The notes below the pieces were generated by a model that saw nothing but the letters and a program-made list of their open reading frames with translations, was not told where the DNA came from and made no database searches. Of a stretch of DNA of 32,000 nt, positions 1 to 21,913 are shown piece by piece. Each line of letters starts with the position of its first letter. Within the stretch, counting starts at the first letter, position 1. The position numbers and the translations under genes are program-made. The stretch comes from Candidatus Electronema aureum (GTDB lineage: Bacteria > Desulfobacterota > Desulfobulbia > Desulfobulbales > Desulfobulbaceae), in NCBI GenBank assembly GCA_004284765.1, contig NQJD01000005.1, positions 86,618 through 118,617 on the forward strand, written 5' to 3'.

Positions 1-2
1 CG

Positions 3-1070
3 GATGAAAACTGCATTCGTTGTCACAACCGTTCAGGCCGGATTGGCATTTCCTACACCGGACTCTTTGAAGGCGAAGGCTACGGCACACCTTACGAGAA
101 AGGCGGGCCGTCCTCAAAGAAGCTGCCAGGCGGACGTTTTTATCTCGAAATTGCTGAAGATGTGCATCACAAGAAAGGTATGTCCTGTATCGACTGCCAC
201 ACCCGCGAGGAAATCATGGGTGATGGTACCCAGTACACCCACTACGAGGAGCAGCTGGAGATCAGCTGCGCTGGTTGTCACACCGCCGAGCCAGGCTTGA
301 CTCGCAAGGGCCGTAAAGTCACCAATATAAAAAAAGAAAAGGACAGCTTTGTTCTCACTGGGCGCAATGATGGCCAAGTCCGCCCGCTCAAGCCACCCAA
401 GCAGGATGCCTGCGCTTATCCGGGCCATAAACGGCTCTCTTGCGAGTCTTGCCACGCTACTTGGGTGCCACAGTGTTACGGTTGCCACGTCAAACGCGAC
501 ATGAGTGATACCGATTTGGACAAACTTAGTCTTCAGGAAACGCCGGGCTGGTGGAAGGAAGGCCGCTCCTACATTCGCTACGAGCAGCCCATGCTTGGGG
601 TGTGGAAGGACAAAGTGGTGATTGTTACGCCCGGCTGTCAGGATGTGGTCACGCTGATTGATAAAAACGGCAAAGTAGAAGGCGGCTTCAATCGCTTCAC
701 AATGGCGGCGATCAATCCGCACACCACCCAAGCCCAAGGCAGACCCTGCGCTGACTGTCACACTTCAACCAAGACCGTCGGCCTCGGTCAAGGCACGGTG
801 ACAAAAAAGAACGGCAAATGGGAATTTTATCCGGTGGGTCAGGGGGTGGAAACGCTCAAAGGTAGAACTGTGCCTTTAGATGCTTTCGTGACTATTGATG
901 GTCAGCAGCTACAGCACGGTTCCCGGCCTGATTTACGTCCCTTTAATGCCGAGGAACTGCGGCGCATTCTGCGAGTTGGGCTATGCTTGCAATGTCACAA
1001 GCGGTACGATGATCCGGCTTATAAGGATTATGACGGGAAGCGGATTTGCCCTAAGTATCAGGAGCCATGA
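3..1070 (+). CDS. multiheme c-type cytochrome, C-terminal part (5' end outside window)
   Basis: Frame 3 is open from base 3 (DENCIRCH...), so the start lies upstream of the window. Seven CxxCH heme-binding motifs are visible (CIRCH, CIDCH, CAGCH, CESCH, CYGCH, CADCH, CLQCH). Stop at 1068-1070. Confidence 0.85.
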   Translation, partial: DENCIRCHNRSGRIGISYTGLFEGEGYGTPYEKGGPSSKKLPGGRFYLEIAEDVHHKKGMSCIDCHTREEIMGDGTQYTHYEEQLEISCAGCHTAEPGLTRKGRKVTNIKKEKDSFVLTGRNDGQVRPLKPPKQDACAYPGHKRLSCESCHATWVPQCYGCHVKRDMSDTDLDKLSLQETPGWWKEGRSYIRYEQPMLGVWKDKVVIVTPGCQDVVTLIDKNGKVEGGFNRFTMAAINPHTTQAQGRPCADCHTSTKTVGLGQGTVTKKNGKWEFYPVGQGVETLKGRTVPLDAFVTIDGQQLQHGSRPDLRPFNAEELRRILRVGLCLQCHKRYDDPAYKDYDGKRICPKYQEP

Positions 1071-1146
1071 TTCTGTAGACCTCTTGCATAAATCGCAGTT
1101 AAGCTATGTCTTCTCGCTACGATGCACGTAGATACTGTTGTCCGAG

Positions 1147-2055
<909 letters not shown>

Positions 2056-2198
2056 CTACGTCGCGGAGTCTTTGCTCCAAGGGGCGAATCTTGTGATCTC
2101 CCTAGATGCTTGCAAGAGAGGGAAGCAAGACGGCAGGAGTATCGGCACCTCTCCGCCCTTGGTAGGACATCACCTCAACCGCCGGACACTATTTATTT

Positions 2199-2957
2199 AT
2201 GCAGATACAGAAAACACCTGCCGACAGCATCCGCTCCTGGCTCGCCTGCCGATACGGAGGCGTGCTGATCTTCCTTCTCGTGTACCTCTGCCTTTCCTTT
2301 GCCACCCGCGCCACGCTTCTTCTGCAAACCACCTCCAATCACAGGCCCTTCACCTTCCCAGAGGGACAGATTGATCTGCCCTCGCTCACCTCAGGCCGGA
2401 AGGGTGGAGTCAAGTACAGTGATCATGCTATTGGTGAGTTCATCCGCAATGCCTCCAGCAAGCCGTGGTTCAAGAACACCGTCTTCGTGATTGTCGCTGA
2501 TCACTGTGCTTCCAGTGCAGGCAAGACTGAGCTGCCGGTGGATAAGTACCATATCCCTCTGCTGATCTACGCCCCAGGTGGCCAGATTGCGCCCGGTAAG
2601 GTGGATACCCTGATGAGCCAGATGGACTATGCACCCACCCTACTGGGCCTCCTGCACTGGACATACCCTAGTCGCTTCTTTGGTCACGATGTCCGCAAGA
2701 TCAAGCCCGCTACCGATGCTCATGCCCTGCTGGGGAACTATCAAAAGGTCGGCCATATAGAGGACGGAAAAATGACGGTGCTTGCTCCAAAGCAGGTCAA
2801 AACCTTCTATGACGTTGCTGCTGATTCAACTTTGCGGCAGCGCAGCTCCTTGCCCAAAGAGAATGAAGAGGAAGCAATCAGCTATTATCAGATGGCTGAC
2901 TACCTTTTTGATCAGCATACCTACAGCGAGCTGAAGGCAGAGGAGTTTGCCAAATAG
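2199..2957 (+). pseudogene. sulfatase-like (LTA synthase / phosphoglycerol transferase family) gene with large internal deletion
   Basis: The C-terminal ~190 aa (KYSDHAIGEFIRNASSKPWFKNTVFVIVADHCAS...MDYAPTLLGLL) match the end of the sulfatase catalytic domain of this family. The N-terminal ~45 aa look like a first transmembrane helix (YGGVLIFLLVYLCLSFATRATLLL). At 252 aa it is far shorter than the several-hundred-aa full-length family, so most of the membrane and catalytic domains are missing. Confidence 0.55.
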
Positions 2958-3080
2958 ATATCTTGCTGGATTCCCTCGGACATATATCCCAATTTCCCGC
3001 CTCTGTTCTTGACCAAAAACCTGGAGTTCTCATACTACCAGCCTGCCGCTGCCCGTATCTGCCGGGCATTTTGCCTAGTA

Positions 3081-3128
3081 AAATGAGGTGGCCACCTCAT
3101 TGTTCGGGCTGACCGAATCGTTTACTAT
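3081..3128 (+). promoter_or_regulatory. promoter/operator module copy 1 (AAATGAG-N7-CCTCATTG-N2-CGGGC, then -10)
   Basis: Perfect 20-bp palindrome AATGAGGTGGCCACCTCATT at 3082-3101. The -35-like TTGTTC (3100-3105) is followed by a 17-nt spacer and -10 TACTAT (3123-3128). It lies 35 nt upstream of the permease start. The same module recurs at 6288-6335 and 13474-13521. Confidence 0.6.
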
Positions 3129-3163
3129 CCGCAGATACGATCAGCGGATACACCAACTAGACT

Positions 3164-4087
3164 ATGATGCAACAGACGCTCCGGCTCATGCTCACCCTGC
3201 TGGGCGTGTCGCTGCTTACCTTCCTGCTGTTGGAATTTGTGCCGGGCGACGCGGCAGAGCTGCTGCTCAGTGGCCAGCAGAACCTAAGCACCGAGAAGAT
3301 CACCGCGCTTCGGCAGGAGCTGGGCTTGGACGCGCCGCTGCCGCTGCGTTATCTCCGCTGGCTGAGACGCGCTGCTGTGCTCGACTTCGGCACGTCCTTC
3401 CGCAGCGGCGAGCCAGTCAGCCAAGAGCTGCTGCGCTGCCTGCCAATCACCCTGACGCTGGCCTGCTGCACCTTCTGCTTCGCAATCAGCATGGCGATGG
3501 CGGGCGGCATCGTTGCCGCGCTCTTGCAGAATCGGTTGCCCGACAAGATCCACCGCCTCTGGACAGTGCTGGCGGTCTCCGTTCCAGACTATTGGATGGG
3601 CCTGATGCTCCTGCTGATCTTCGGCCTCAAGCTGCGCTGGCTGCCAGTGGCAGGCGGCAGCGGCCTGAAGATATACATCCTGCCAACGCTTGCCCTCGGC
3701 CTCTCGGTCTCGGCAGCAGAAGGCCGGGTCTTCCGCGCCAGCATCATTGAGGTCATGAACCAAGACTGGGTGCTCTTTGCCCGCGCCAAAGGCCTGAGCC
3801 GGACGCAGGTCTTCCTTGGTCATGTCCTCAAGCCTGCACTGCTGCCGATGCTCTCCATCTGGGGAATGCTGCTGGGGCATCTGCTCGGCGGCGCGGTAGT
3901 GGTGGAGTCAGTCTTCTCACTGCCCGGATTGGGCAAGCTGGCTGCTGACGCAGTGCTGCAACGGGACATGCCAATGGTGCAGGGAACGGTTCTTCTAATG
4001 ACCTTCTTCTTTGTTGCAGCAAGCACTGTCATGGAGTCGGCACGGGCCGCGCTGCTGCCATTCCGGTCTGAGGCTCGGCTGCACTAG
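3164..4087 (+). CDS. ABC transporter permease, Dpp/Nik/Opp type (DppB/NikB-like)
   Basis: The N-terminus LRLMLTLLGVSLLTFLLLEFVPGDAAELL and the LGLDAPLPLRYLRWL motif are typical of DppB/NikB-family permeases, and the protein is multi-TM. Confidence 0.85.
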   Translation: MMQQTLRLMLTLLGVSLLTFLLLEFVPGDAAELLLSGQQNLSTEKITALRQELGLDAPLPLRYLRWLRRAAVLDFGTSFRSGEPVSQELLRCLPITLTLACCTFCFAISMAMAGGIVAALLQNRLPDKIHRLWTVLAVSVPDYWMGLMLLLIFGLKLRWLPVAGGSGLKIYILPTLALGLSVSAAEGRVFRASIIEVMNQDWVLFARAKGLSRTQVFLGHVLKPALLPMLSIWGMLLGHLLGGAVVVESVFSLPGLGKLAADAVLQRDMPMVQGTVLLMTFFFVAASTVMESARAALLPFRSEARLH

Positions 4088-4110
4088 ACTGCCTAACTTT
4101 CCCTGTATAC

Positions 4111-4194
4111 GAAACCATGCATTTGATTGGATCGAAACCATGCATTTGATCGGATCGAAACCATGCATTTGATCGGGACGAAACCATGCATTCG
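4111..4194. repeat. 23-bp tandem repeat, about 3.6 copies (GAAACCATGCATTTGATYGGATC)
   Basis: Units at 4111-4133, 4134-4156 and 4157-4179, plus a partial unit from 4180. The copies differ at only 1-2 positions. The array is non-coding (period not a multiple of 3) and sits between the permease and the receptor gene. Confidence 0.9.
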
Positions 4195-4241
4195 TGGATG
4201 CTCCGGCTATAACAAAAGACCTACTACAACATGAGGAGACG

Positions 4242-6251
4242 ATGAAGAGCACAGCTGTTTCAGTGGCGGCGATGACTGCCGTCCTGACGATTATGAACGG
4301 GCCGTCCGCTGCCCAAGAGCAGGCGCACACCATGAACGAGATCGTGGTCACTGCAACCAAGACCGAGCGCGAGGTGAAGGAGATTCCCACCAACGTGGCC
4401 GTGCTGACCGAAAAGGACATTGAGCAGATCCAGCCAACAGACACTATGGATCTGCTCCGCCATGTGCCTGGCTTGGTGCTCAACGGCATGGGCAGCAGCA
4501 AGGCATCGCATTATGCGGGAGTACGCGGTATGCAGCCCTCGTCGCGGGGCATGTTGCTGCTGATGGACGGGATTGAGATGAATGATCCCAGCAACTACCT
4601 CTCTGTTTCGACCATTCCGCTGGATGCCATCGAGCGAATCGAAGTGATTAAAACGCCTGCCTCGGTGCTCTACGGCCCGGCAGCAGTTGGCGGCGTGATT
4701 AACATCATCACCAAGAAGCCAAGCAAGCCGCTGGAGGCTAGGGTTGCAGCAGGCTATGGCTCCTTTGAGCGCAAGGAAGTGTCAGCGAATATCGCCGGAC
4801 TGCGGGAGAGCGGCCTCACCTACGGCCTCAATTATCAGATGCTGGACAGCGACGGCTACCGCGACAATAGCTGGCGCACGCAGCACGCCTTCACCCCGCG
4901 CCTTGGTTATCTTGGCGAGCAGGTGGACTTTGACCTTGTTGCCAACGTGGTTGATGCGGAATACGCCTTCCCCGGCGGTCTGCCTCTGAGCACGTGGGAA
5001 CAGGATCCAACCAAGTCCCTCCAGCCTGACCGCGAGGGCGATTCGGTCAAGAGCACAGTCGGCGCGACCATGAACTGGAGCCTGAACGAGAGCAACATCC
5101 TCAAGCTGAAGACCTCCTACCGCGACAACGACTGGGAGACTGAGGACTACGGCATGTTCTTCAAGGGCGATAACTACAAGGTCTGGACGGGCGAGGCCGC
5201 CTATCAGCACCTTGCGGTCATCAATGGGATGCGCAACTCGCTGCTCCTTGGCACAGAATACCGGGACCTGAACAATGAGCCGAGCATGTACATGGACGAT
5301 CAGCACGGCTCCATGCTCCTTAGCCAAGCGAAGATTCAGGAGCAGATCACCGGCTTCTTTGTTCAAGATGAGCTGTCGCCAACGGACAAGCTGCTGCTCA
5401 ACCTCGGTGTGCGCTACGACCAGATTGACACTGACTTCACCAACAAGCTGATGTCCTTAGCCAGCTTTGACAGCTCGCATGACAAGTGGAGTCCGCGCTT
5501 TGGCCTGACCTACACGGTCGCGCCAGAGCTGGCCTTCTTCGGCAACTACTCGCAGGGCATCCGCTCGGTCAACTTGGCCCGCTCGGCCTTCCAGCTCAAG
5601 AGCAACATCGTGCCGGAGACTGAGGAGAGCATTGAGGTCGGCCTGCGCGGCGTGCTGGGCGGGGTGATGGAATACACGGTGGCAGGCTTCCAAGTCAATA
5701 CCGAGGACAAGATCATCCAGAAGGAGCGGTATCTGTATGAGAACGCGGGCGAGGCCGAGTCCAAGGGCATCGAGGCCAGCCTGACCCGCAGCCTTCCCTG
5801 CGGCTTCTACGCCTCAGCAGACTACACCTACATCAATGCTGAGTTCACCGAGTTCTCCACGTCCAGCACCACGCCAGACGCGGCCATCTCCTACAACGGC
5901 AAGCGCGTGCCGTTGGTGCCGGAGAACATCTTCGGCCTGACCGTTGGCAGGAAGGACCCGCTCTATGGCCACCTGAGCGCATCGCTCCGTTATGTGGACG
6001 AGAAGTTCATTGACAACGCCAACACCCTCAGCTTGGGCGACTACACAGTGGTGGACGTGAAGTACACGGTCGGCTTGCAGGCGCTCTTCCCGACGGCACA
6101 GGGCTGGGACTTCACCTTGGCCGTCAACAACCTCTTTGACGAGACCTACGCTGAGTACGGCGAGGCCAACGGCGGCTCCTATGTTCCTGAGCCGGTGGCC
6201 TTCCCGGCGGACGGCGTGTCGGTCTTTGGTGGTATCAGCTATTCGTTCTGA
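4242..6251 (+). CDS. TonB-dependent outer-membrane receptor 1
   Basis: GGAGA RBS before the ATG at 4242. Signal peptide MKSTAVSVAAMTAVLTIMNGPSAAQE, TonB-box-like EIVVTATK, plug motif IERIEVIKTPASVLYGPAAVGGVINIITK, a long beta-barrel region and a terminal ...GGISYSF. Confidence 0.9.
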   Translation: MKSTAVSVAAMTAVLTIMNGPSAAQEQAHTMNEIVVTATKTEREVKEIPTNVAVLTEKDIEQIQPTDTMDLLRHVPGLVLNGMGSSKASHYAGVRGMQPSSRGMLLLMDGIEMNDPSNYLSVSTIPLDAIERIEVIKTPASVLYGPAAVGGVINIITKKPSKPLEARVAAGYGSFERKEVSANIAGLRESGLTYGLNYQMLDSDGYRDNSWRTQHAFTPRLGYLGEQVDFDLVANVVDAEYAFPGGLPLSTWEQDPTKSLQPDREGDSVKSTVGATMNWSLNESNILKLKTSYRDNDWETEDYGMFFKGDNYKVWTGEAAYQHLAVINGMRNSLLLGTEYRDLNNEPSMYMDDQHGSMLLSQAKIQEQITGFFVQDELSPTDKLLLNLGVRYDQIDTDFTNKLMSLASFDSSHDKWSPRFGLTYTVAPELAFFGNYSQGIRSVNLARSAFQLKSNIVPETEESIEVGLRGVLGGVMEYTVAGFQVNTEDKIIQKERYLYENAGEAESKGIEASLTRSLPCGFYASADYTYINAEFTEFSTSSTTPDAAISYNGKRVPLVPENIFGLTVGRKDPLYGHLSASLRYVDEKFIDNANTLSLGDYTVVDVKYTVGLQALFPTAQGWDFTLAVNNLFDETYAEYGEANGGSYVPEPVAFPADGVSVFGGISYSF

Positions 6252-6287
6252 GGCAGGCCGCCCGAAAGCCGGGAGCTTTGCCTATGG

Positions 6288-6335
6288 AAATGAGCTTCCC
6301 GCCTCATTGTCCGGGCAGTGCTGGCTTGTTATAGT
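6288..6335 (+). promoter_or_regulatory. promoter/operator module copy 2 (upstream of precursor peptide)
   Basis: AAATGAG (6288-6294), N7, CCTCATTG (6302-6309), TC, CGGGC (6312-6316). The -35-like TTGTCC (6307-6312) is followed by a 17-nt spacer and -10 TATAGT (6330-6335). TTTGCCTA lies 3 nt upstream (6277-6284), as in copy 1 (3070-3077). Confidence 0.6.
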
Positions 6336-6464
6336 AGGCAATTGAAAAGCAGCGGCATCCCCCAGCACTACCGCCGCTGCGTTTGGATGTCTGAGCTTTG
6401 CCCAACGGCGGTCTGCAATTCCGCAGGCCGCTTATCACAACCCTTCAACACTAAGGTGATTGAA

Positions 6465-6656
6465 ATGGCTATTCAAGCAGAAGTTCTCAAGCCCGAGTCT
6501 TCGTACAACGCTGCTCCCTGCGCTTGCTGCCACGGCGGTGCCTATCAGGCTGCGCCGTGCGCCTGCTGTCATGGCGGAGCGTACCAAGCCGCACCGTGTG
6601 CATGTTGCCACGGTGGTGCCTATCAGGCTGCCCCCGCAGCGTGCTGCCACGGCTGA
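6465..6656 (+). CDS. RiPP (TOMM-type) precursor peptide with repeated Cys/His-rich cores
   Basis: AAGGTG RBS 6 nt before the ATG at 6465. The 63-aa product is MAIQAEVLKPESSYN-(AAPCACCHGGAYQ)x3-AAPAACCHG. It sits immediately upstream of E1-like, YcaO and SagB-type genes on the same strand. Confidence 0.8.
   Translation: MAIQAEVLKPESSYNAAPCACCHGGAYQAAPCACCHGGAYQAAPCACCHGGAYQAAPAACCHG
6510..6653 (+). repeat. 39-bp coding tandem repeat (3 full units plus one 27-bp unit) inside the precursor gene
   Basis: Units at 6510-6548, 6549-6587, 6588-6626 and 6627-6653. The three full units encode identical 13-aa peptides but differ at 9, 7 and 12 of 13 codons pairwise, and every difference is synonymous. 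Confidence 0.9.
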
Positions 6657-6693
6657 GAGTAACGGTCGGAGCACTCTGACCTGAACGAAAAAA

Positions 6694-6728
6694 GGGGGCC
6701 TGCCTATCGGCAAGCCCCCTTTTCTTTG
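6694..6728 (+). terminator. intrinsic terminator / attenuator hairpin after the precursor gene
   Basis: GGGGGCCTGCC (6694-6704), loop TATC, GGCAAGCCCCC (6709-6719) with one mismatch, followed by TTTTCTTTG. Confidence 0.6.
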
Positions 6729-6732
6729 CAAC

Positions 6733-6870
6733 AAGGTGAGTGCGGTTCCAGCAGAAGTTCTCAAGCCCGAGTCTTTGCGCAACGCCACATCCTGCGCCTG
6801 CTGCCTCTGCCCCCGCAGAGACGAGCAGGCCATTCACCTCTTTTATCATTCTAGCCGCTCTGGAAACGCC
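6733..6870 (+). other. second, degraded copy of the precursor 5' region, in frame with the downstream E1-like gene
   Basis: AAGGTGA followed by agcagaagttctcaagcccgagtctt repeats 6453-6500 almost exactly. It would encode (V)SAVPAEVLKPESLRNATSCACCLCPRRDEQ.... The ATG is replaced, the only in-frame GTG (6736) sits inside the SD-like sequence, and there is no stop codon before the ATG at 6871. Confidence 0.6.
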
Positions 6871-7767
6871 ATGCAACAAAATGTTCTAAAACTCTGCCGC
6901 TGCCGCCAGATTCCTGTGCAGGAGCACAAGCTGCTGCTCAAATCAGCGGACACGTCGCTCTCTCTCGCCGCTGAGGGCATCCAGCGGCTGGCGGACTGCC
7001 TGCTGCCCCTGCTCGACGGCAGCCGCACTGAAGCGCAGGTGCTTGCTGCTGTGCCGACGGATTTACAGGAAGGGGCCAAGGAGCTGCTCCAGCTCTTTGC
7101 CAAGGAAGGCTTTCTCAGCACAGAACCGGCCAAGAGGCTGGCTGACTGCCGCATTGTCCTGATTGGTGGAGGACGGCTGGCGCAGAAGATCGCCCAGAGC
7201 TTGCGGGAGTCCGGCGCAGCGCAGTTAGAAGAACTCAGCGGCAGCGAGCCGGACAGCTGGTCTTTGCTGGAACGGCTGCGCAGTGCCGACATGGCTGTGG
7301 TCTGCACTGATCTCCCCCGCCCGGATATCTGCGAGCTGGTCAACAAGGCCGCCCTGACCCGCAAGCTGCCGTGGCTGCTGGTACAGATGGACGGCAGGGA
7401 CGGCTGGGTTGGGCCGCTTTTCATTCCCAGAGAGACTGGCTGCTATACCTGCCTGAGGCAGCGGCTGCTCTCCTGCTCCTTCCACGCGGAGACGGACAAG
7501 GCTGTCCATGCCGCCGCCTTGCGCACGCCTTTCACTGAGACGCTGGAGCTGCTGCCGCCCTTCGCCGACCTGCTTGCGGCTCTGGCCGCGCTGGAGGTCA
7601 TCCGCCACCTGACCGAACTTAGTCCGCCGCTCACGTATCAGGCCCAGCTGCTGCTGGACTGCATCACTGGCATTTCCCGCAGGGACGTGCTGCACCGGAT
7701 TCCGCGCTGTCCGGCCTGCTCCGAGACTGCCGAGCAGGTTTCCGCCATCCAGCCTTTCTCAGGGTGA
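6871..7767 (+). CDS. E1-like/ThiF-like TOMM leader-peptide-binding protein (cyclodehydratase partner with N-terminal RRE)
   Basis: PqqD-like RRE signature LLPLLDGSRTEAQVLAAV, Rossmann-like CRIVLIGGGRLAQKIAQSL, and CxxC pairs (GCYTCLRQR and RCPACS) as in E1-like/SagC-type proteins. Its stop lies 6 nt before the YcaO start. The start could instead be 6736 if the upstream relic is translated. Confidence 0.75.
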   Translation: MQQNVLKLCRCRQIPVQEHKLLLKSADTSLSLAAEGIQRLADCLLPLLDGSRTEAQVLAAVPTDLQEGAKELLQLFAKEGFLSTEPAKRLADCRIVLIGGGRLAQKIAQSLRESGAAQLEELSGSEPDSWSLLERLRSADMAVVCTDLPRPDICELVNKAALTRKLPWLLVQMDGRDGWVGPLFIPRETGCYTCLRQRLLSCSFHAETDKAVHAAALRTPFTETLELLPPFADLLAALAALEVIRHLTELSPPLTYQAQLLLDCITGISRRDVLHRIPRCPACSETAEQVSAIQPFSG

Positions 7768-7773
7768 GCCGCC

Positions 7774-9060
7774 ATGATGATGAGCCATTTGCAGATCACC
7801 CCGCAGCAGCGCGGCCAAGAGAAGCTGTTGGATGAATTCGTCAGCACCCGGCTTGGCCCGGTGAGGAACCTCTATGAGCTGACCCGTGAGCCGGACGCGC
7901 CAGACATCTTCAGCTATGTCTCAGAACTCTGCGACATGACGCAGTTCAGCTTCCAGCAGTCCGGCACAGTCAGCACCGGCATTGGCATCACCCGCTTTCA
8001 TGCCCGTACAGCAGCTATCGGCGAAGCACTGGAACGCTACGCCAGCGGCTTCTATAATCCGCAAAGCCAAGTCCGGCTCGCCTCCTACAAAGAGCTGCGT
8101 GCAGACGGGCTACGAGCTGCCCATCCCTCAGACTTCGGCCTCTACTCTGAGCAGCAGTATCAGCAGTGCGGCTACCTCCGTCGCTTTACCGAGGAGACTA
8201 GGATCGGCTGGGCCAAGTCAGTCGCACTGACTGACAGCCATGCTGAGGTCTGGCTGCCCGCCTGCTTTGTCTTCCTGCCCTATACGTACATGGCAGGTGA
8301 GACGCAGATATCCTCGCAGATATCTACCGGCCTGTCCGCCTCCTTCGACTTTGACACAGCGGTTATGGGCAGTATCTGTGAGATCGTCGAGCGCGAGGCA
8401 GCGATGCTCACCTGGCTGCACAATCTCCCCTGTGCTGAACTCAGCTTCAGTCCTGACTGCTGGTTCTCTGAGGTTTTTGCCCAGCGGTTTGCCCGCTCTG
8501 GCTTTGCATACCGTCTTTGCCATGCGCCGGGCGACCTTGGCCTGCACACCGTCTTTGCCATGATGGTAGATAAGGGCCGCCACGTCGTCTCCACCGGCTC
8601 TTCCACGAAGACCGATCCACAACAGGCAGCACTGAAGGCCCTGCTGGAGACCGTGCAGGTGCGCGAGCTGCTTCAGTCCATTCCCAAGAGGCGCACGCCA
8701 GCCAAGTTCCATCTAGAGCTGTACCAAGATATTCCTCTCAGTCCTGACCTGCATCAGTTCTTCCATTCAGGTATCACCCAGCATTCCGTGGGTGAGGAGA
8801 CCGCGTTGACGCTGCCAGAATTGCTGGCCAACTGCAAGCAGGCGGGCATAGATGTCTATGTCATTGACCTGACCACCGCTGACCTTGCTGACGCGGGCCT
8901 CAAGGTGGTGCGCGTGGTGATGCCGCAAGCTGTACGCCTCTACCGCGAGTTTGAGCTACCCTATCTTGGCGGCAAACGGTTGTACGAGGCTCCGGCACGG
9001 ATGGGCTTCGCTGCCATGTCTGAGGCAGAGCTGAATCTGCAACCCCATCCCTTTGGCTGA
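7774..9060 (+). CDS. YcaO-family cyclodehydratase (SagD-like azoline synthetase)
   Basis: YcaO signatures GIGITRFHARTAAIGEALERYA and ICEIVEREAAMLTW. The C-terminus ...LQPHPFG resembles the proline-rich PxPxP tail described for azoline-forming YcaOs. Confidence 0.9.
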   Translation: MMMSHLQITPQQRGQEKLLDEFVSTRLGPVRNLYELTREPDAPDIFSYVSELCDMTQFSFQQSGTVSTGIGITRFHARTAAIGEALERYASGFYNPQSQVRLASYKELRADGLRAAHPSDFGLYSEQQYQQCGYLRRFTEETRIGWAKSVALTDSHAEVWLPACFVFLPYTYMAGETQISSQISTGLSASFDFDTAVMGSICEIVEREAAMLTWLHNLPCAELSFSPDCWFSEVFAQRFARSGFAYRLCHAPGDLGLHTVFAMMVDKGRHVVSTGSSTKTDPQQAALKALLETVQVRELLQSIPKRRTPAKFHLELYQDIPLSPDLHQFFHSGITQHSVGEETALTLPELLANCKQAGIDVYVIDLTTADLADAGLKVVRVVMPQAVRLYREFELPYLGGKRLYEAPARMGFAAMSEAELNLQPHPFG

Positions 9061-9064
9061 TACG

Positions 9065-10276
9065 ATGACAGAAAACACGCCCGCGCTGCTGCGGAACCAC
9101 CGCTTCTGGCTGTTCTGGGGCGGCCAGTCGTTGTCCAAGATCGGCGACAAGCTGCACTACATTGCCCTGATGTGGTATGTGGTCAACCGGACCGACTCTG
9201 GCATGGCGATGGGCAGCGTGCTGCTTGCCTCTTCGCTGCCCATTGTCCTCTGTGCGCCCAAGGCTGGGGAACTGATTGACCGACTGAACCGCAAATGGTT
9301 GCTGGCCGCTGCTGACTTACTTCGGGCTGGAGCTGCGCTGGGCATTGGCTGGGCAGCCTCTTCTGGGGAGATCAACCTGCCTCTACTGCTGCTCTTCACC
9401 GCCCTGATGGCTGTGGGCACTGCCTTCTTCCAGCCTGCGGTTAATGCCCTGCTACCGTTGATCGTCCGCGAGGAAGACCTGCTCCGCGCCAACTCTGTCA
9501 ACGAGAGCGCGACCCAGACAGCAGGCCTATCCGGGCCAGTGCTGGCTGGTGTTTTCCTCAGCGTTGCTGCTCCGTATCTGGTTTTTTATCTCAACGCCTT
9601 CTCCTTCCTTGTCGGTGCGCTTTCTGTTTTGCCCTTGATAGTGCAGCAGCCAAAGGTGGAAGCTGACCGGAAAGGTGGTCTGCGTGAGGGTCTGAGCTAT
9701 CTGCTGATGCGGCCCGCGCTGCGGGACATTGCCCTAACCTTCGCGGTGCTCAACTTCGCTGTGAGCTTCATGGAGGTTTATATCCCCTTCCTCAACAAGG
9801 AGAGCTTCGGCGGCGGCGCACAAGAGTTGGGCCTGATCTTCAGTGCGATCTTCGCCGGTGCCCTCTTGGCCTCATTCGGCCTGCTGCTGAAGAAGGACAT
9901 CAACCAGTGGGAGAAGGTGATTGGCGGCGGCATCATTCTGATGGGCCTGTCCTTTGCCGCCATATTCTTCTTCCGCCAGCAGCATATTGCCCTGAGCCTC
10001 TTTCTCCTCGTCGGGGTTGGCTGGGGCGTGTTTGGCACCAATGCGCGGGTTTATATTCAGAAGACCGTGGAAGACCAACGCCGGGGCCGCGTCTTTGCCC
10101 TGATTAGTGCCGTATCCAACCTGATGATGCCGCTCGCCTATGGCCTAGCCGGGCTGGCCGCCAGCGTGTTGCCAGTCTATCCGGCCTTCCTACTGGGCGG
10201 CAGCGTCGTCCTGTTCTGCGGGCTTTATCTATTCTCAAGGAGATTCAACCATGCCGAGTGTCAATGTCCGGCTTAG
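9065..10276 (+). CDS. MFS transporter, EntS/DHA3-like (candidate product exporter)
   Basis: N-terminus LLRNHRFWLFWGGQSLSKIGDKLHYIALMWYV and a polytopic hydrophobic profile. The ATG at 9065 is preferred over the TTG at 9053. It starts 5 nt after the YcaO stop. Confidence 0.8.
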   Translation: MTENTPALLRNHRFWLFWGGQSLSKIGDKLHYIALMWYVVNRTDSGMAMGSVLLASSLPIVLCAPKAGELIDRLNRKWLLAAADLLRAGAALGIGWAASSGEINLPLLLLFTALMAVGTAFFQPAVNALLPLIVREEDLLRANSVNESATQTAGLSGPVLAGVFLSVAAPYLVFYLNAFSFLVGALSVLPLIVQQPKVEADRKGGLREGLSYLLMRPALRDIALTFAVLNFAVSFMEVYIPFLNKESFGGGAQELGLIFSAIFAGALLASFGLLLKKDINQWEKVIGGGIILMGLSFAAIFFFRQQHIALSLFLLVGVGWGVFGTNARVYIQKTVEDQRRGRVFALISAVSNLMMPLAYGLAGLAASVLPVYPAFLLGGSVVLFCGLYLFSRRFNHAECQCPA

Positions 10277-10931
10277 TCTGCCTGACGACAGCCCCTGTGA
10301 GCTGTTCCATACTGCAACTAAACTCTCGCCCTATCAGTTCCGGCAGTGGTACTACCAACAGCCCCCCGTGACTGAGCATCCGGCCATTGCTAAGTGGATG
10401 CAGGCCCCGTTCAAGGAATATCTCTCCTTGCCGCAGACCGAGCTGCCTCCGCCTGCATCTGCGGCTGCCCAAGCAGGCCAGGTAGATGCAGCCTGCCTTG
10501 CTGCGCTGCTCCAGCAGCCAGCCGAGATCAGTTCATTAGAGCTGTATCTCTGGGTGAATGCTGCCAGCGGCATGATGCCGGGCCTGCATCATTACAACAA
10601 ACGAACACACCGGCTGGAGTCCTTCCCTGCTGCCGGGCCGCTGCTGCCAACAGCACAACTGCGCCGGCACATGCCAGAGCACCTCTCCGCCCTGCTCTTT
10701 ATTAGCGGAGTCGTGACCAGAGTGCGCCTGCAACACGGCGAGCGCGGCTACCGCTACATGCTCTTTGAGACTGGCCAAGTGCTGGAGCGGATGCGCTCCC
10801 AGGCGGCAGCCTTGGGCTTCTCGCTGGCTTTGATGCCGGACTTCTATGACGATGCGGTCAACAAGCTGCTCGGCTTGGATGGCGTAGAGGAGTCAGTGCT
10901 GCATATGGCTGGCGTGCTCATGCCGACATAG
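10251..10931 (+). CDS. SagB-type (nitroreductase-fold, FMN) azoline dehydrogenase
   Basis: AAGGAGA RBS. N-terminal FHTATKLSPY motif and C-terminal ERGYRYMLFETGQVLERMRSQAAALGF, typical of SagB/ThcOx dehydrogenases. It overlaps the MFS gene by 26 nt. Confidence 0.75.
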   Translation: MPSVNVRLSLPDDSPCELFHTATKLSPYQFRQWYYQQPPVTEHPAIAKWMQAPFKEYLSLPQTELPPPASAAAQAGQVDAACLAALLQQPAEISSLELYLWVNAASGMMPGLHHYNKRTHRLESFPAAGPLLPTAQLRRHMPEHLSALLFISGVVTRVRLQHGERGYRYMLFETGQVLERMRSQAAALGFSLALMPDFYDDAVNKLLGLDGVEESVLHMAGVLMPT

Positions 10932-11067: not shown

Positions 11068-11874
11068 ATGAATCCTCTGCAACAGTGGCGGGCCTTTCAG
11101 GACAAGAGCTTGTACTATCAGGCCGTGAAGGCAGATGGCGAGGAATCCTGCTGGCGGGAGATCGCCCGCCAGTATGATCAGCTGGTCTATCCGCAGCATC
11201 AGCAAAGAGCGCTGCTAGCCCGGCTGCTGCCGCGCTTAGACGGTGTGTCCAGCGCGATTGAGATCGGTGCGGGCAGCGGCACGCTCACCATGCCGCTGGC
11301 ACGGCAGTTCAGGCGGATGACGGCGGTTGAGCCGTCCCCATCCATGGCCGAGGTCTTGCAGGGCAATCTCGTCCAGCAGCGGCTTGGGCACGTCACTATC
11401 ATCCGCCAACGCTGGGAAGAAGCACAGCTGCCGCCAGCAGACGCAGTGATTGCCGGTGGCTGTCTTTACGTCTTCTATGAGATTGAAGCTGCGCTGCGGA
11501 AGATGCGGGAGGCGGCCAGGTCAACGGTGCTCCTCACCCATGTTGGCAATGAAGGGCTGTGGGATATTGACCTGCGCGCGCAGGAGCTGCTGGCCGCGCC
11601 CAAGCCCTGCCTCTTTCCGCCACTGCCGCTGCTCATGGATGTGCTGACCTCGCTGCGCATTCCAGCCACAGTTGAGCTGTTCTATGTCACGACCACGAAA
11701 CGCTTCACTGAAGAGCAATGGCTCAAACGCTGCCAGCGGCTTTTCGCGGTGCGTCCTGAGCAGCAGCCGCTCCTGCTGGACTTTCTCCGGCAGGAATTGC
11801 ATCAGGAACACGGCTGCTGGACTGTTACCGAGGATGTTCCCGCCACGATAGTCGAATTACGGAGAGAGAATTGA
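11068..11874 (+). CDS. class I SAM-dependent methyltransferase (candidate tailoring enzyme)
   Basis: SAM motif I IEIGAGSGTLTMPLA and post-I AVEPS. Its stop overlaps the next gene's start. Confidence 0.8.
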   Translation: MNPLQQWRAFQDKSLYYQAVKADGEESCWREIARQYDQLVYPQHQQRALLARLLPRLDGVSSAIEIGAGSGTLTMPLARQFRRMTAVEPSPSMAEVLQGNLVQQRLGHVTIIRQRWEEAQLPPADAVIAGGCLYVFYEIEAALRKMREAARSTVLLTHVGNEGLWDIDLRAQELLAAPKPCLFPPLPLLMDVLTSLRIPATVELFYVTTTKRFTEEQWLKRCQRLFAVRPEQQPLLLDFLRQELHQEHGCWTVTEDVPATIVELRREN

Positions 11875-13331
11875 ACAAGTTCATGCTGCTGACGCTGGCT
11901 GCCCTGTTGATCTGTTCTGCTGCCCTTGCAGGCGAGGACAAACTGACTGTCGCGCTCGGCAAAGATGAGTACATCACCGCAGGGCCAAGGGCAAATCTCG
12001 GCAAGTACCCGCTCAACGCCAAGATCTTTGAATCGCTGACCACCTTTGATCAACACTTCAGGCTGCTGCCTTGCCTGGCGGTCTCTTGGACGCAGCACGA
12101 TAGGAAGATATGGCGGTTCGTCCTGCGCGAGGGCGTGCGGTTCCATGACGGCAGCCCGCTTGATGCCGCAGCCGTGCGTCGCTCCTTTGAACAGCAGGCG
12201 CAGAGCGGCACACTGCTCTTTGAGTACGAGAGCCTCAAAGACATCGCGGCCAACATCATTGAGATCACCACGCCGCAGGAGAATAGGATCCTGCCGTACA
12301 TCCTCTCGCATCCCTATCTCGGCATCACCAAGATAGGCAGCAAAGAGCCTGTCGGCACTGGGCCATTGCAGTTTGTTCGCTACGAGAAAGACCAGTTGCT
12401 GGAGGTCAAGCGGTATGAAGACTACTGGGGTGATCAAGCCAAGAATGCAGGCATTGTCTTCCGCTTTCTGCCGGATAACGCAGCCCGAATGATGGCTTTT
12501 CAGGCAGGCGAGGCGGATATTCTCGCCGATTTGCCATGGGAGGCTCTGCCGGAGCTACAGGCCAGCAGCGGCATCACGCTGCGCACGTCGCCAGTGGGCA
12601 GCTATGTCGGCCTGATGCTCTCAGGCAAGGGGGCCACGGCAGAGAAGCGCGTGCGGCAGGCCATTGCCCTCGCGTTTGACCGGCAGGCGATCAGCAAGGC
12701 GGTTTGGCACGGTCTTGGCGAGACACGGCAGACCCTGCTGGCGCCGTCCTTTCTTGGCAGTCATGAGGCACTTCTGGCTGACCTGCCATGTAATCCAGCC
12801 AAGGCCAAGGAGCTGCTGGGCGGCAGAACGATCAGCCTTGCTTTGATCTCCGGCTTTCCCAATGCCAATGCCCACGGCATACTGCCGGAGATCCTGCAAG
12901 CACAGCTTCAGGCCGCAGGCTTTGAAGTACGTCTGCAGAAAATCAACGACGCTGGTCTGTACCACTCGATGATGAAGGCGGGAAAGGGCGACCTATGGCT
13001 GGAGAAAGGCAGCGTCAACAGTGCAGATCTGACCTTCCTGCCGCACCTGCTCTTTCATCCTGAGGGCTATTACCCTAAGCAGCTCGGCACAGCAGCAGGC
13101 ACAGTGGCATTCGTTGATCACATTGCCAAGGCCAGAGCTGCGGAGAGCGATGATGCCTTGCGGAGAAACACCGCGCTGGCCTTGAAGGAGATTGTTACGG
13201 AGGAGCTGCTCTTTATCCCGCTTGCCGAGCTGCCCTTCCTGCTGGCAGCGCAGCCAGATGTGCAGACACCTGAGCTGCACCCGACGCTGCTCACCACCCG
13301 CTGGGATCAGTTTGCATCTGTCCGGCGGTGA
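11871..13331 (+). CDS. ABC transporter substrate-binding protein, family 5 (NikA/DppA/OppA-like)
   Basis: Signal peptide MNKFMLLTLAALLICSAALA. Family-5 features AVSWTQHDRKIWRFVLREGVRFHDGSPLDAAAV and LEVKRYEDYWG. The TTG at 11871 follows GGAGAGAGA; an alternative ATG lies at 11883. Confidence 0.85.
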   Translation: MNKFMLLTLAALLICSAALAGEDKLTVALGKDEYITAGPRANLGKYPLNAKIFESLTTFDQHFRLLPCLAVSWTQHDRKIWRFVLREGVRFHDGSPLDAAAVRRSFEQQAQSGTLLFEYESLKDIAANIIEITTPQENRILPYILSHPYLGITKIGSKEPVGTGPLQFVRYEKDQLLEVKRYEDYWGDQAKNAGIVFRFLPDNAARMMAFQAGEADILADLPWEALPELQASSGITLRTSPVGSYVGLMLSGKGATAEKRVRQAIALAFDRQAISKAVWHGLGETRQTLLAPSFLGSHEALLADLPCNPAKAKELLGGRTISLALISGFPNANAHGILPEILQAQLQAAGFEVRLQKINDAGLYHSMMKAGKGDLWLEKGSVNSADLTFLPHLLFHPEGYYPKQLGTAAGTVAFVDHIAKARAAESDDALRRNTALALKEIVTEELLFIPLAELPFLLAAQPDVQTPELHPTLLTTRWDQFASVRR

Positions 13332-15910: not shown

Positions 15911-15944
15911 TTTTTTGCTATCAATTTCAACGCAAAGGGTAATT

Positions 15945-16484
15945 ATGTCTGTTGCAACACAGAACGACTGGGAGCAGTGCGTCGCCTTTCACGGCCACGA
16001 ATGCCCCGGCTTGGCTATCGGCTACCGGATCGCCAAAGCGGCGCAGAACAAGCTGGGCGTAAGCTTCTCGCCGGACGAGGATGTGGTCTGCGTGACCGAG
16101 AACGATGCCTGCGGCTTGGACGCAGTCCAGTATCTCACCGGCTGCACCTTGGGCAAAGGCAACCTCATCTACCGCGACCGGGGCAAGCAGGCGTTCAGCT
16201 TCTTTGTCCGCTCGCAGAACAAAAAGCTGCGCGTGGTGATGTCGCTGAAGTTTGACCGGGACAAAATGGATCGGGAAGCTCTGAAAAAACAGATACTGAC
16301 CATGCCGGACGAGGAGCTGTTCGCCTTCAGCGAGCCAAGCTATGACCTGCCCGCCCGCGCCCGTCTCTTCAAAAGCGTGACCTGCGAGCAGTGCGGCGAG
16401 ACCTGCTCGGAGCGCAATGTCCGCCTGCACGAGGGCAAGCAGCTCTGCATGGACTGTGCGCCGGATTATTCCAGAGGGTGGTGA
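15945..16484 (+). CDS. FmdE-family protein (formylmethanofuran dehydrogenase subunit E-like) with C-terminal zinc ribbon
   Basis: AFHGHECPGLAIGYR and DACGLDAVQYLTGCTLGKGNL are typical of the FmdE domain. The C-terminal CEQCGE...CMDCA forms a CxxC pair. RBS AAAGGG. Confidence 0.8.
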   Translation: MSVATQNDWEQCVAFHGHECPGLAIGYRIAKAAQNKLGVSFSPDEDVVCVTENDACGLDAVQYLTGCTLGKGNLIYRDRGKQAFSFFVRSQNKKLRVVMSLKFDRDKMDREALKKQILTMPDEELFAFSEPSYDLPARARLFKSVTCEQCGETCSERNVRLHEGKQLCMDCAPDYSRGW

Positions 16485-16485
16485 G

Positions 16486-19407: not shown

Positions 19408-19409
19408 CC

Positions 19410-21833: not shown

Positions 21834-21913
21834 ATGTGTGAACAGAAAGAAAGCGGCGGGCCGAAGCGCAGGCTCTCCCGCAGAAACAATAAAAAGTGCA
21901 TAGGAAGAATATT

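Follow-up and report, generated by a model that had tools for sequence, protein, structure and literature searches.

A tandem Cys-Cys-His peptide gene among YcaO-type enzymes and metal-import genes in the cable bacterium Candidatus Electronema aureum: probable precursor of a thiazole-containing metallophore

Linear azole peptides of the LAP/TOMM class, such as microcin B17 (McbBCD), plantazolicin and streptolysin S (SagBCD), are made from short Cys-rich precursors by a discrete E1-like protein, a SagD-type YcaO enzyme and a SagB-type dehydrogenase. Contiguous Cys-Cys should yield a 4,2-linked bis-azole, as in microcin B17. In the cyanobactins, several cores are carried on one precursor (PatE), with a repeated recognition junction before each of them. 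A different kind of cluster is represented by the methanobactin operons, of which MbnE is the periplasmic binding protein. A ribosomal peptide with N-heterocycle ligands, an exporter and a TonB-dependent receptor are clustered in these operons (PMC3621798). Bufferins and bulbicupramide derive from repeated short Cys cassettes (EGKCG) that become metal-binding heterocycles, with no protease encoded nearby (PMC12538549). In the opine metallophore systems (staphylopine Cnt, pseudopaline CntO/CntI) the ligand is a small opine made by CntKLM and not a ribosomal peptide. Cable bacteria have a special nickel demand, and a published survey reported an orphan TonB receptor with a Nik/Opp operon in some of them; no ligand-making genes were reported, and Ca. 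En. aureum was listed as being without the system (PMC11247825).

The window considered here, a stretch of 32,000 nucleotides from contig NQJD01000005.1 of the cable bacterium Ca. Electronema aureum GS, contains a cluster that resembles each of these systems in part. The ORF at 6465-6656 is considered to be the structural gene of an undescribed family of linear thiazole-containing ribosomal peptides, most likely a metallophore (probability roughly 0.6). The precursor gene and the enzyme genes of the cluster are as follows.

6465-6656, plus strand: precursor peptide gene (63 aa), leader MAIQAEVLKPES followed by four x-Y-x-A-A-P-x-A-C-C-H-G(-G) units
6871-7767, plus strand: E1-like (ThiF-type) cyclodehydratase partner with an N-terminal RRE-like domain (TIGR03882, 67.9 against a cut-off of 36.9)
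7774-9060, plus strand: YcaO cyclodehydratase of SagD type (PF02624, 194 bits; TIGR03604, 232.8 against a cut-off of 219.25)
10251-10931, plus strand: SagB-like FMN dehydrogenase of nitroreductase fold (PF00881 above cut-off; TIGR03605, 73.4 against a cut-off of 78.4)
11068-11874, plus strand: class I SAM methyltransferase, candidate tailoring enzyme, conserved in the cluster with orthologs in L004, L005 and L011

Translation of 6465-6656 on the plus strand gives MAIQAEVLKPESSYNAAPCACCHGGAYQAAPCACCHGGAYQAAPCACCHGGAYQAAPAACCHG and a stop codon, which can be written as MAIQAEVLKPESSYN followed by three copies of AAPCACCHGGAYQ and a terminal AAPAACCHG. Among the 48 residues of the core are 11 Cys and 4 His; the last unit has Ala (GCA) in place of its first Cys. 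The translation and the three 39-nt units given in the preliminary description were reproduced codon for codon on re-translation and realignment, while its count of 3.5 units is a matter of register: the leader ends in S-Y-N-A-A-P, a copy of the inter-unit junction A-Y-Q-A-A-P, and reading x-Y-x-A-A-P-x-A-C-C-H-G-G gives four full units after a leader of about 12 residues. A repeated [YF]-x-[AVIT]-[AVT]-P motif is found at the leader/core junction and ahead of every unit in all family members. Orthologs end in CCHGGE and a stop; in the window a GGC codon has become TGA, and the ancestral GAG TAA is still in frame downstream. The gene has no NCBIfam match and was missed by both the NCBI and the Logan gene callers.

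The substitutions that separate the gene from four orthologous genes are predominantly synonymous in the precursor frame (synonymous to non-synonymous 15:1, 25:5, 27:3 and 25:3), and in the other five frames the same substitutions are nearly all non-synonymous or stop-creating. The 6465-6656 ORF is thus a real protein-coding gene. The NCBI annotation at the locus is a spurious antisense gene. The proposal that this minus-strand ORF (6487-6849) is the true gene, with the plus-strand peptide a by-product of composition, can draw on a 120-aa gene called there in GCA_942492785.1. It is refuted by 0 synonymous against 17-32 non-synonymous ortholog substitutions in the minus-strand frame and by stop codons within the compared segment; the ORF also has no Pfam match, and conservation of the plus-strand peptide extends over seven loci and four divergent clusters, leaving the proposal next to no credence.

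Within the core, dN is 0 in comparison with L003, L006 and the second L004 copy and 0.009 (one change) with the first L004 copy, at a dS of 0.6-2.9, while dN of the flanking enzymes is 0.14-0.32. The synonymous divergence of the core is about that of the neighbouring genes. The three 39-nt units differ from one another at 9 of 13 codons (1 versus 2), 7 of 13 (1 versus 3) and 12 of 13 (2 versus 3), in every case by a single synonymous base. Units 1, 3 and 4 are each most similar to the unit at the same position in L003, the closest ortholog, with 1-3 nt differences against 5-10 nt otherwise. The recoding is older than the split from that ortholog and is at synonymous saturation. An old duplication under very strong purifying selection on every residue, as proposed in the preliminary description, therefore agrees with the near-absence of core dN and with the positional orthology of the units, and the synonymous recoding need be no more than the passive outcome of that duplication and of near-absolute selection on the amino acids.

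The same description had also raised selection against recombination between units. Active selection of synonymous changes that suppress inter-unit recombination or slippage would fit the window gene itself, in which the inter-unit codon differences sum to 28 against a random mean of 20.3 (P = 0.011; units 2 versus 3, P = 0.005), and it would fit the loss of a second gene copy through an internal deletion between units. However, the sums in the four other Electronema-clade genes (19-23, P = 0.26-0.70) match the value of about 20 expected from random synonymous draws, the units of the divergent relative L011 are almost identical at the DNA level (11 of 13 codons), and the deletion junction of the second copy shows only 6-nt microhomology. 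With the window gene alone nominally above expectation, selected recoding is judged unlikely, and passive saturation is preferred. The units then illustrate with textbook clarity how synonymous sites saturate under an absolute constraint on the amino acids, a phenomenon that is not new.

The second copy and the signals around the precursor gene are located as follows.

6307-6335, plus strand: promoter-like site TTGTCC-17-TATAGT with TG extension, both hexamers conserved in L003, L006 and L013
6408-6431, plus strand: 5'-UTR hairpin GCGGUCUGC ... GCAGGCCGC with variable loop, conserved (z = -4.2)
6453-6458, plus strand: Shine-Dalgarno sequence AAGGTG, 6 nt ahead of the ATG, conserved in all Electronema-clade orthologs
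6477-6497, plus strand: invariant 21-nt block GCAGAAGTTCTCAAGCCCGAG in the alignment, encoding leader residues AEVLKPE
6664-6728, plus strand: two hairpins 3' of the stop codon, the second (6686-6728) terminator-like with a U-tract (-36.7 kcal/mol, z = -5.0)
6736-6870, plus strand: relic of a second precursor copy, in which the leader and unit 1 as far as TGCTGCC are fused, out of frame, to CTGCCCCCGCAG from the last unit

The relic reads in frame into the E1-like ORF. A second precursor copy is intact in L004, an intact copy end lies at the same position in L007, and in L003, L006 and L010 the copy is decayed; the middle units of the decayed copy have gone by internal deletion. Repeat instability at the precursor locus is therefore real. 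The leader fragment left ahead of the E1-like gene is strictly conserved and in frame with that gene in three genomes. In an AF2 model of the fused ORF, considered with regard to docking of the leader on the RRE, a strand is predicted at residues 6-9, at a pLDDT of about 50. In the L003 relic, the in-frame TGA might be taken for a selenocysteine codon; this was rejected, there being no start codon in the relic there and no conserved downstream hairpin.

The leader block GCAGAAGTTCTCAAGCCCGAG is 100% identical in the four intact genes and three relics, in which other synonymous sites are saturated. RNA structure as the cause of this invariance was rejected, since the hairpins proposed by RNAalifold contain zero compensatory pairs. 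Compensatory covariation was likewise absent from the 5'-UTR hairpin in the Electronema-clade alignment. Counterpart hairpins of different sequence lie 3' of the precursor gene in L003 and L004. Visual inspection of the aligned upstream regions revealed no recognisable Fur, NikR or Zur operator, and no Rfam family matched the window at gathering threshold.

A short Cys-rich ORF with a leader beside a YcaO gene had been described in the preliminary account as a RiPP precursor, and this is borne out: a SagD-family YcaO, an E1-like partner with an RRE and an adjacent precursor of short leader and Cys-rich core lie together, as expected of a TOMM/LAP cluster, with a single YcaO where several had been mentioned. 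The E1-like AF2 model combines an N-terminal RRE-like beta-beta-alpha-alpha-alpha domain with an E1 fold, and its top Foldseek matches are LynD, MccB, TruD and MusD, with McbB also matched (E down to 2.5e-13). TruD, LynD and MusD are likewise the nearest solved chains of the YcaO protein, so that the cyanobactin and muscoride heterocyclases are the closest solved relatives of both enzymes (E about 1e-13). Unlike the PatD type of the cyanobactins, the E1-like and YcaO proteins are encoded here by separate, unfused genes. The SagB-like gene is conserved in synteny. In comparison with LAP/TOMM precursors, the leader is short (about 12-15 aa) and the core consists of 2-4 identical 13-residue units with an invariant CCH; in addition, a TonB receptor and a Nik/Opp-type importer are part of the cluster. 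These transport genes are as follows.

3164-4087, plus strand: NikB/OppB-like ABC permease (Pfam BPD_transp_1 and BPD_transp_1_N), here displaced upstream of the cluster
4194-6251, plus strand: TonB-dependent receptor 1 (NCBI start 4242; Pfam Plug and beta-barrel), directly upstream of the precursor
9053-10276, plus strand: MFS exporter, EntS-like (MFS_3; Pfam/NCBIfam)
11871-13331, plus strand: family-5 periplasmic binding protein (SBP), Nik/Opp/Cnt-like (PF00496, 207 bits)
20228-21082, plus strand: NikC/OppC-like ABC permease, 53% identical to the L011 and 74% to the L004 permease 3' of the SBP gene
21072-21833, plus strand: ABC ATPase of the Nik/Opp-type importer, one here and two in L011 and L005
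21896-23978, plus strand: ExbB, ExbD and TonB, energising the receptors, within the island

The cluster runs in the order TonB receptor, precursor, E1-like/RRE protein, SagD-type YcaO, EntS-like MFS, SagB-like protein, methyltransferase and Nik/Opp-type importer, and its genes overlap or abut in a single orientation. The exporter is conserved 3' of the YcaO gene in L003, L004, L007, L008, L009, L011 and L013, and the receptor slot upstream of the precursor is also filled in L003, L004 and L011. L005 and L011, in which the YcaO is 49-52% identical, keep the TonB-dependent receptor, precursor, E1-like protein, YcaO, MFS, SagB-like protein, methyltransferase, SBP, two permeases and one or two ATPases. 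The displaced permease at 3164-4087 is 52.5% identical to the L011 permease directly 3' of the SBP gene. In some genomes the importer appears partly eroded: in L004 the SBP gene is split and the first permease is missing, and in the window there is a single ATPase and the genes are scattered. The nearest solved chains of receptor 1 are YncD, PqqU, CntO and FoxA, and several of those of the SBP are named as nickel-binding proteins (3t66, E. coli NikA entries, 8spm). Both proteins score below every equivalog cut-off, receptor 1 at 223.1 against 223.5 for the siderophore receptor model TIGR01783 and the SBP at 160.7 for Opp5A_nikA (cut-off 600), 128.7 for nickel_nikA (393) and 81.1 for CntA (800), with membership of the SBP at family level only. 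The importer type is that of the opine systems, in which CntA/NikA are relatives of the SBP and CntO of the receptor, and both the opine systems and the present one fit a broad Ni/Co/Zn/Cu acquisition role.

The position of the gene among thiazole-forming enzymes, an exporter and genes for import of metal complexes makes the precursor of a metal-scavenging molecule its most likely role, and it is the conserved export and import genes, missed in the earlier account, that point to a metallophore. The enzyme trio of E1-like protein, YcaO and SagB-like dehydrogenase is also that of LAP antibiotics, and an MFS pump could provide both export and self-protection, so the product might be an antibacterial peptide of the microcin B17, plantazolicin or klebsazolicin kind beside unrelated metal-uptake genes. 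This is considered unlikely, as the linkage of receptor, SBP and ABC importer to the biosynthetic genes, all in the same orientation, persists down to 49-52% YcaO identity, import of its own toxin would make no sense for a producer, an immunity gene is lacking, and the core is an extremely conserved series of small Cys-Cys-His units and not a long variable azole tract.

A metallophore could be made and used as follows. The RRE of the E1-like protein would bind the short leader (AEVLKPE), and YcaO would cyclodehydrate Cys residues, as a minimum those of the invariant Cys-Cys pair in every unit, after which the SagB-like dehydrogenase would oxidise the thiazolines to thiazoles; the computed mass shift expected for azole formation is -20.03 Da per Cys, for up to 11 Cys. 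The conserved methyltransferase may then add a methyl group, the EntS-like pump would export the product, and the metal complex would re-enter by way of the TonB-dependent receptor and then the Nik/Opp-type ABC importer. On chemical grounds, each unit would present a 2,4'-bithiazole followed by His, with four N donors: the nitrogens of both thiazoles, that of the deprotonated His amide and one from the imidazole. Chelation by these would form a 5-5-6 ring system with the geometry known from the ATCUN Cu(II)/Ni(II) site. Such an N4 geometry would favour Ni or Cu as the metal.

The four units may remain as four sites on one chain, or may be released as four 13-mers cut at the [YF]-x | [AV]-A-P junction. 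The recurrence of the junction before every unit, with cyanobactin and muscoride heterocyclases as the closest solved enzymes, favours by analogy a cyanobactin-like release of units. No peptidase domain was found in any window ORF or among the called genes of L004, L005 and L011; unlike the cyanobactin systems, there is no PatA/PatG-type protease, macrocyclase or prenyltransferase, and the cores are invariant where those of cyanobactins are hypervariable. In muscoride, which has a contiguous bis-azole, MusD itself removes the residues after the bis-azole in an ATP-dependent manner (PMC10885120). By analogy, cleavage of the MusD type is a possible protease-free route for the present system.

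The arrangement of a precursor with an exporter, a TonB-dependent receptor and a periplasmic binding protein, kept down to 49% YcaO identity, is that of methanobactin operons. The chemistry differs, being YcaO/azole here and MNIO/oxazolone-thioamide there, and the window contains no MNIO/DUF692 (MbnB) or MbnC domain; four sites are present per precursor against one, an ABC importer is encoded, and the hosts are cable bacteria. The present system thus combines LAP chemistry with methanobactin-like logic, and a YcaO-made azole peptide metallophore is the best reading. A metal-buffering or detoxifying peptide like bufferins or bulbicupramide, sequestering excess Cu or other metals outside the cytoplasm instead of acquiring them, would also suit a Cys/His-rich core, as Cu(I) is bound by repeated heterocycles derived from Cys in the repeat-cassette RiPPs that MNIO enzymes make (PMC12538549). 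However, a dedicated TonB-dependent receptor, together with ExbBD-TonB and an importer that depends on a binding protein, is machinery for uptake. In PMC12538549 no such genes are described for bufferin-type clusters, and TonB receptors go unmentioned. These clusters also differ in their MNIO/DUF2063 enzymes and freer repeat number, and a buffering role is thought quite improbable.

The distribution of the family bears on its role in the host. The ORF, which the preliminary description had suggested following into related genomes, is kept in orthologous loci, and relatives have 2-4 units: the divergent precursors P0043-P0046 share this unit range, an invariant P-x-[AG]-C-C-H-G and an aromatic [YF]-x-[AVIT]-[AVT]-P junction. 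The family is rare. A contig search with the window YcaO as single query returned one relative only (L003), and a precursor-profile search of 1.84 billion representatives yielded as family members just the four short peptides known before. Three long profile matches that were inspected (P0057, P0063 and P0067) are unrelated proteins with GCCD or NSHHG repeats. No description of the family was found in literature searches, and no described family matches it. The named hosts are En. aureum, En. halotolerans, one Electrothrix MAG and UBA5173, every named source being a cable bacterium. The cluster is missing from most cable-bacterium genomes, which makes the system accessory.

The restriction of named hosts to cable bacteria, the vicinal Cys of the core and the linked Nik-like importer raise the speculation that the nickel-sulfur cofactor of the conductive fibres is built with the peptide or delivered by it. 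This is very improbable: natural absence of the system from most cable-bacterium genomes already suggests that it is dispensable for fibres and conductivity, the export pump and receptor indicate an extracellular cycle, and the linked Nik/Opp operon is absent from the closed Ca. E. gigas genome (PMC11247825).

With a secreted metallophore as the preferred role, a more detailed picture can be offered tentatively, at somewhat less than even odds. This would be the first YcaO/azole ribosomal metallophore, with Thz-Thz-His as an ATCUN-like square-planar N4 site and four sites or released units per gene, used by cable bacteria to scavenge Ni or Cu, the Ni perhaps for the conductive fibres; the conserved leader fragment before the E1-like gene could act as a built-in cyclodehydratase activator, the natural equivalent of LynD engineered with a fused leader. 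The RiPP metallophores in the literature searched (methanobactins, bufferins and bulbicupramide) are all made by MNIO enzymes. If the reading is true, a YcaO-made thiazole-His chelator would represent a second, independent ribosomal route to metal scavengers, with a compact and repeatable ligand unit. The locus supplies a candidate ligand for the way in which cable bacteria obtain nickel for their conductive fibres, a question that is now directly testable.

The open reading frame at 6465-6656 (+) encodes MAIQAEVLKPESSYN, followed by three copies of AAPCACCHGGAYQ and a terminal AAPAACCHG, and is very probably a real gene for a RiPP precursor (probability about 0.97). Re-translation yielded the product and the three units of identical protein sequence given in the preliminary description, and codon-by-codon realignment reproduced exactly its differences between units 1 and 2, 1 and 3, and 2 and 3 (9/13, 7/13 and 12/13 codons), each of which is a single synonymous base that leaves the amino acid unchanged. 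The earlier count of "3.5 units" stands for three full copies plus a terminal part; in the register x-Y-x-A-A-P-x-A-C-C-H-G-G, however, there are four full units. Since the last residues of the leader (S-Y-N-A-A-P) echo the inter-unit junction (A-Y-Q-A-A-P), the leader shrinks to about 12 residues, and four full units follow it. Cys is the sole cyclisable residue in the core. All the orthologs end in ...CCHGGE* and are two residues longer than this precursor; at 6654-6662, GGC GAG TAA has become TGA GAG TAA, so that the C-terminal Gly-Glu is lost and the old GAG TAA is still in frame. The following signals flank the gene:

6307-6335 (+): promoter-like TTGTCC-17-TATAGT
6 nt 5' of the precursor ATG (+): Shine-Dalgarno AAGGTG
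3' of the precursor stop: two hairpins, of which the second has a U-tract and resembles a terminator (z = -5)

The precursor is not called by NCBI or Logan; in its place, the NCBI record has a 120-aa hypothetical protein on the opposite strand (6487-6849, -). The gene is neither absent nor decayed in orthologous loci of relatives, the outcome that had been named as fatal to it: it is intact in L003, L006 and L013 and occurs as two tandem copies in L004. The YcaO proteins of L003 (Desulfobulbaceae UBA5173), L006 and L004 are 79%, 75% and 71% identical to that of the window, and a YcaO of identical sequence is present on OW818638.1 of GCA_942492785.1, the assembly of the freshwater cable bacterium Ca. 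Electronema aureum GS (PMC11976967). Relative to the window, four orthologous genes show synonymous to non-synonymous ratios of 15:1, 25:5, 27:3 and 25:3 in the precursor frame. Both minus-strand frames show 0-4 synonymous against 15-32 non-synonymous changes, with stops within the segment in one; in the annotated antisense frame the counts are 0 against 17-32, with stop codons inside the compared segment. The minus-strand gene was rejected on these grounds, and the spurious NCBI annotation masks the true gene. Nei-Gojobori counts over the core (48 codons, about 110 non-synonymous sites) gave a dN of 0 against L003, L006 and L004 copy 2, and one change against L004 copy 1, at a dS of 0.60 for L003, 2.9 for L006 and 1.3-1.7 for the L004 copies. 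The flanking enzymes and transporters have a dN of 0.14-0.32 at a dS of 1-2, a rate at which about 16-22 replacements would be expected in the core per comparison. These data agree with the strong purifying selection on every core residue proposed previously.

Units 1, 3 and 4 are closest to their positional counterparts in L003 (3, 3 and 1 nt, against 5-10 nt for other pairings), so that recoding preceded the split from L003; as had been suggested, the duplication is old and not recent slippage. L004, where synonymous sites are saturated, has the same four-unit architecture, including the already described exchange of the last unit's first Cys for Ala. Selection against recombination between units had also been put forward to explain the recoding. 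Under a null model of random synonymous codon draws from the island's own codon usage, 6.75 +/- 1.7 codons differ per unit pair, with a three-pair sum of 20.3. The window gene, at 28 (P = 0.011), is the only one above expectation; sums in the other four Electronema-clade genes are 19-23 (P = 0.26-0.70), and in the divergent relative L011 two units agree in 11/13 codons, which argues against such selection. Because the sums fit random draws and the L011 units are near-identical, the recoding is explained by age and purifying selection; selection for DNA dissimilarity, for which the evidence is one nominal P value, is not required. With this exception, the core interpretation of the preliminary description is supported.

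Directly 3' of the precursor lies the relic of a second copy, with a leader-like MSAVPAEVLKPESLRNATSCACCLCPRR..., which continues without a frame break into the E1-like ORF, both in the window and in the homologs P0083 and P0090. Relics were found at:

window 6736-6870 (+)
L003 4930-5089
L006 1827-1983
L010 1-104

Alignment to the intact gene resolves the relic into the leader and unit 1 up to TGCTGCC, fused out of frame to CTGCCCCCGCAG of the last unit; the middle units were lost by internal deletion, which shows that the repeat array can collapse. In L003 the relic has an in-frame TGA and lacks a start codon, and in L006 it is frameshifted. L004 retains the second copy intact (6519-6716), and L007 starts with the end of an intact further copy at the same position; two tandem precursor genes were the ancestral state. 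The 21-nt block GCAGAAGTTCTCAAGCCCGAG, which encodes AEVLKPE of the leader, does not vary among intact leaders and relics of the Electronema clade (100% identity across four intact genes and three relics). It lies at the following positions:

window 6477-6497 and 6751-6771
L003 4672 and 4949
L006 1560 and 1839
L013 ~212

The region from about -55 in the 5'UTR to codon 11 is nearly invariant in the Electronema clade, with synonymous sites saturated elsewhere. RNAalifold proposed hairpins in the leader region, one sequestering the start codon, but no covarying pair supporting RNA structure in the leader/5'UTR region. The invariant block and the in-frame relic leader might be explained by gene conversion from copy 1, by translational control or by a naturally occurring fusion of leader and enzyme.

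The cluster genes are tightly packed on one strand.

Genes around the precursor in the window
3164-4087 (+): NikB-like permease
4194-6251 (+): TonB-dependent receptor
6871-7767 (+): E1-like protein, TIGR03882 above cut-off
7774-9060 (+): YcaO, TIGR03604 (232.8, cut-off 219.25)
9053-10276 (+): EntS-like MFS
10251-10931 (+): SagB-like dehydrogenase (73.4, cut-off 78.4)
11068-11874 (+): SAM methyltransferase
11871-13331 (+): family-5 solute-binding protein (SBP), best models NikA, Opp5A and CntA, all under cut-off
13610-20174 (+): second uptake module (receptor, FmdE protein, methyltransferase, BtuF-like protein, FecCD permease, ATPase)
20228-21833 (+): NikC-like permease and ATPase
21896-23978 (+): ExbB-ExbD-TonB

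The closest solved relatives of the E1-like protein and YcaO are the cyanobactin/muscoride heterocyclases TruD, LynD and MusD. An AF2 model of the 343-aa ORF (pLDDT 77) has an RRE-like beta-beta-alpha-alpha-alpha domain and an E1 fold, and matches LynD, MccB, TruD, MusD and McbB. The second uptake module interrupts the order of SBP and NikC-like permease and is missing from the compact clusters L011 and L005; Rfam gave no cobalamin riboswitch for it. The island borders (1147-2957 and 24259-24723) carry an IS110-family transposase (-), a C-terminal sulfatase fragment and a TonB-receptor fragment comprising only the end of the Plug domain, which suggests that the island is rearranged or mobile. 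The window start cuts a multihaem cytochrome gene with Cytochrome_C7/c3 motifs, whose product has 587 aa in the full record; its 3' part lies at 162-1070.

YcaO clusters with 49% identity or more number only 11 among 5.8 billion protein clusters, and no other exceeds 32%. The search for relatives' repeat ORFs advocated earlier found divergent peptides, in four clusters: P0043 (unit 3, AVPDACCHG), P0044 (MEKEKVEVKVLRQEEGYS + VAPAACCHGSAYH + VAPAACCHGGAYH + VAPAACCHGG), P0045 (three units) and P0046 (two units). A precursor profile search of 1.84 billion representatives gave no further short peptide. The family shares P-x-[AG]-C-C-H-G, a repeat period of 13 residues and an aromatic residue that precedes each unit by two positions; the first Cys of C-A-C-C can be dispensed with. 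The hosts known by name are Ca. En. aureum, Ca. En. halotolerans and Ca. Electrothrix sp. AUS3; L003 belongs to a Desulfobulbaceae MAG. L011 is a compact cluster of receptor, precursor, E1, YcaO, MFS, SagB, methyltransferase, SBP, two permeases and two ATPases, and L005 (YcaO 49% identical) has YcaO, SagB, receptor, methyltransferase, SBP, two permeases and two ATPases. The scattered permeases and ATPase of the window are 47-53% identical to their L011 orthologs and 60-74% to those of L004, which makes the En. aureum island a rearranged form of the compact cluster. Divergent from the RiPP cluster, L011 also carries (1-7265) an AraC-type regulator and a second receptor/SBP/permease/ATPase operon, resembling the cable-bacterial layout of a TonB-dependent receptor directly upstream of Nik/Opp/Dpp (PMC11247825). 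In L004, a radical-SAM/SPASM enzyme, which may be an extra maturase for the same or another peptide, and an extra MFS lie just 5' of the receptor (891-3593); this relative lacks the first permease, and its SBP is broken up into two ORFs.

What the sequences show is a translated precursor under strong constraint, an apparently complete set of enzymes for azole formation, and a conserved association with genes for export and for TonB/ABC import. The leader would bind the RRE, and YcaO and the SagB-like enzyme would turn Cys into thiazoles, an activity that is likely for this enzyme set. The CC pair would become a 2,4'-bithiazole with His directly after it. By chemical reasoning, each unit would then chelate through its two thiazole nitrogens, the imidazole N-delta and the deprotonated amide N of His, in rings of 5, 5 and 6 members as in the ATCUN X-X-His Cu(II)/Ni(II) site; the need for such an N4 chelate would explain the invariance of C-C-H-G. 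The MFS pump would export the product, and the receptor and Nik/Opp-type system would re-import it. A metallophore role is rather probable, with Ni and Cu as equally tentative candidates for the metal. The chain may stay whole or be cut into units. Release is favoured by the recurring [YF]-x / [AV]-A-P junction and by the resemblance of the enzymes to those of cyanobactins, and protease-free, YcaO-catalysed cleavage next to a bis-azole by MusD is a precedent (PMC10885120); against it, no peptidase is encoded anywhere in the 32,000-nt window.

A survey of cable bacteria reported an 'undefined' TonB receptor upstream of a Nik/Opp operon, both absent in other Desulfobulbales, and asked for biochemical work on them; it does not mention YcaO, and its Table S6 gives no nik/opp/dpp genes for Ca. 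En. aureum (PMC11247825). In Ca. E. antwerpensis, five locus tags separate the receptor from nik/opp/dppA, a gap matching the gene number between receptor and SBP here, which is a lead rather than a demonstration. Full-text literature searches turned up no YcaO-type metallophore, CCH-repeat precursor or cable-bacterial RiPP cluster, and the text of the 2015 TOMM survey, when searched, proved to mention neither TonB nor siderophores nor metals. Closest in function is bulbicupramide, a Cu-binding product of MNIO enzymes with EGKCG repeats (PMC12538549). The context is the bigger point: the family is one of rare, unannotated RiPPs, associated with cable bacteria, in which the chemistry of linear azol(in)e-containing peptides is combined with the logistics of a metallophore.
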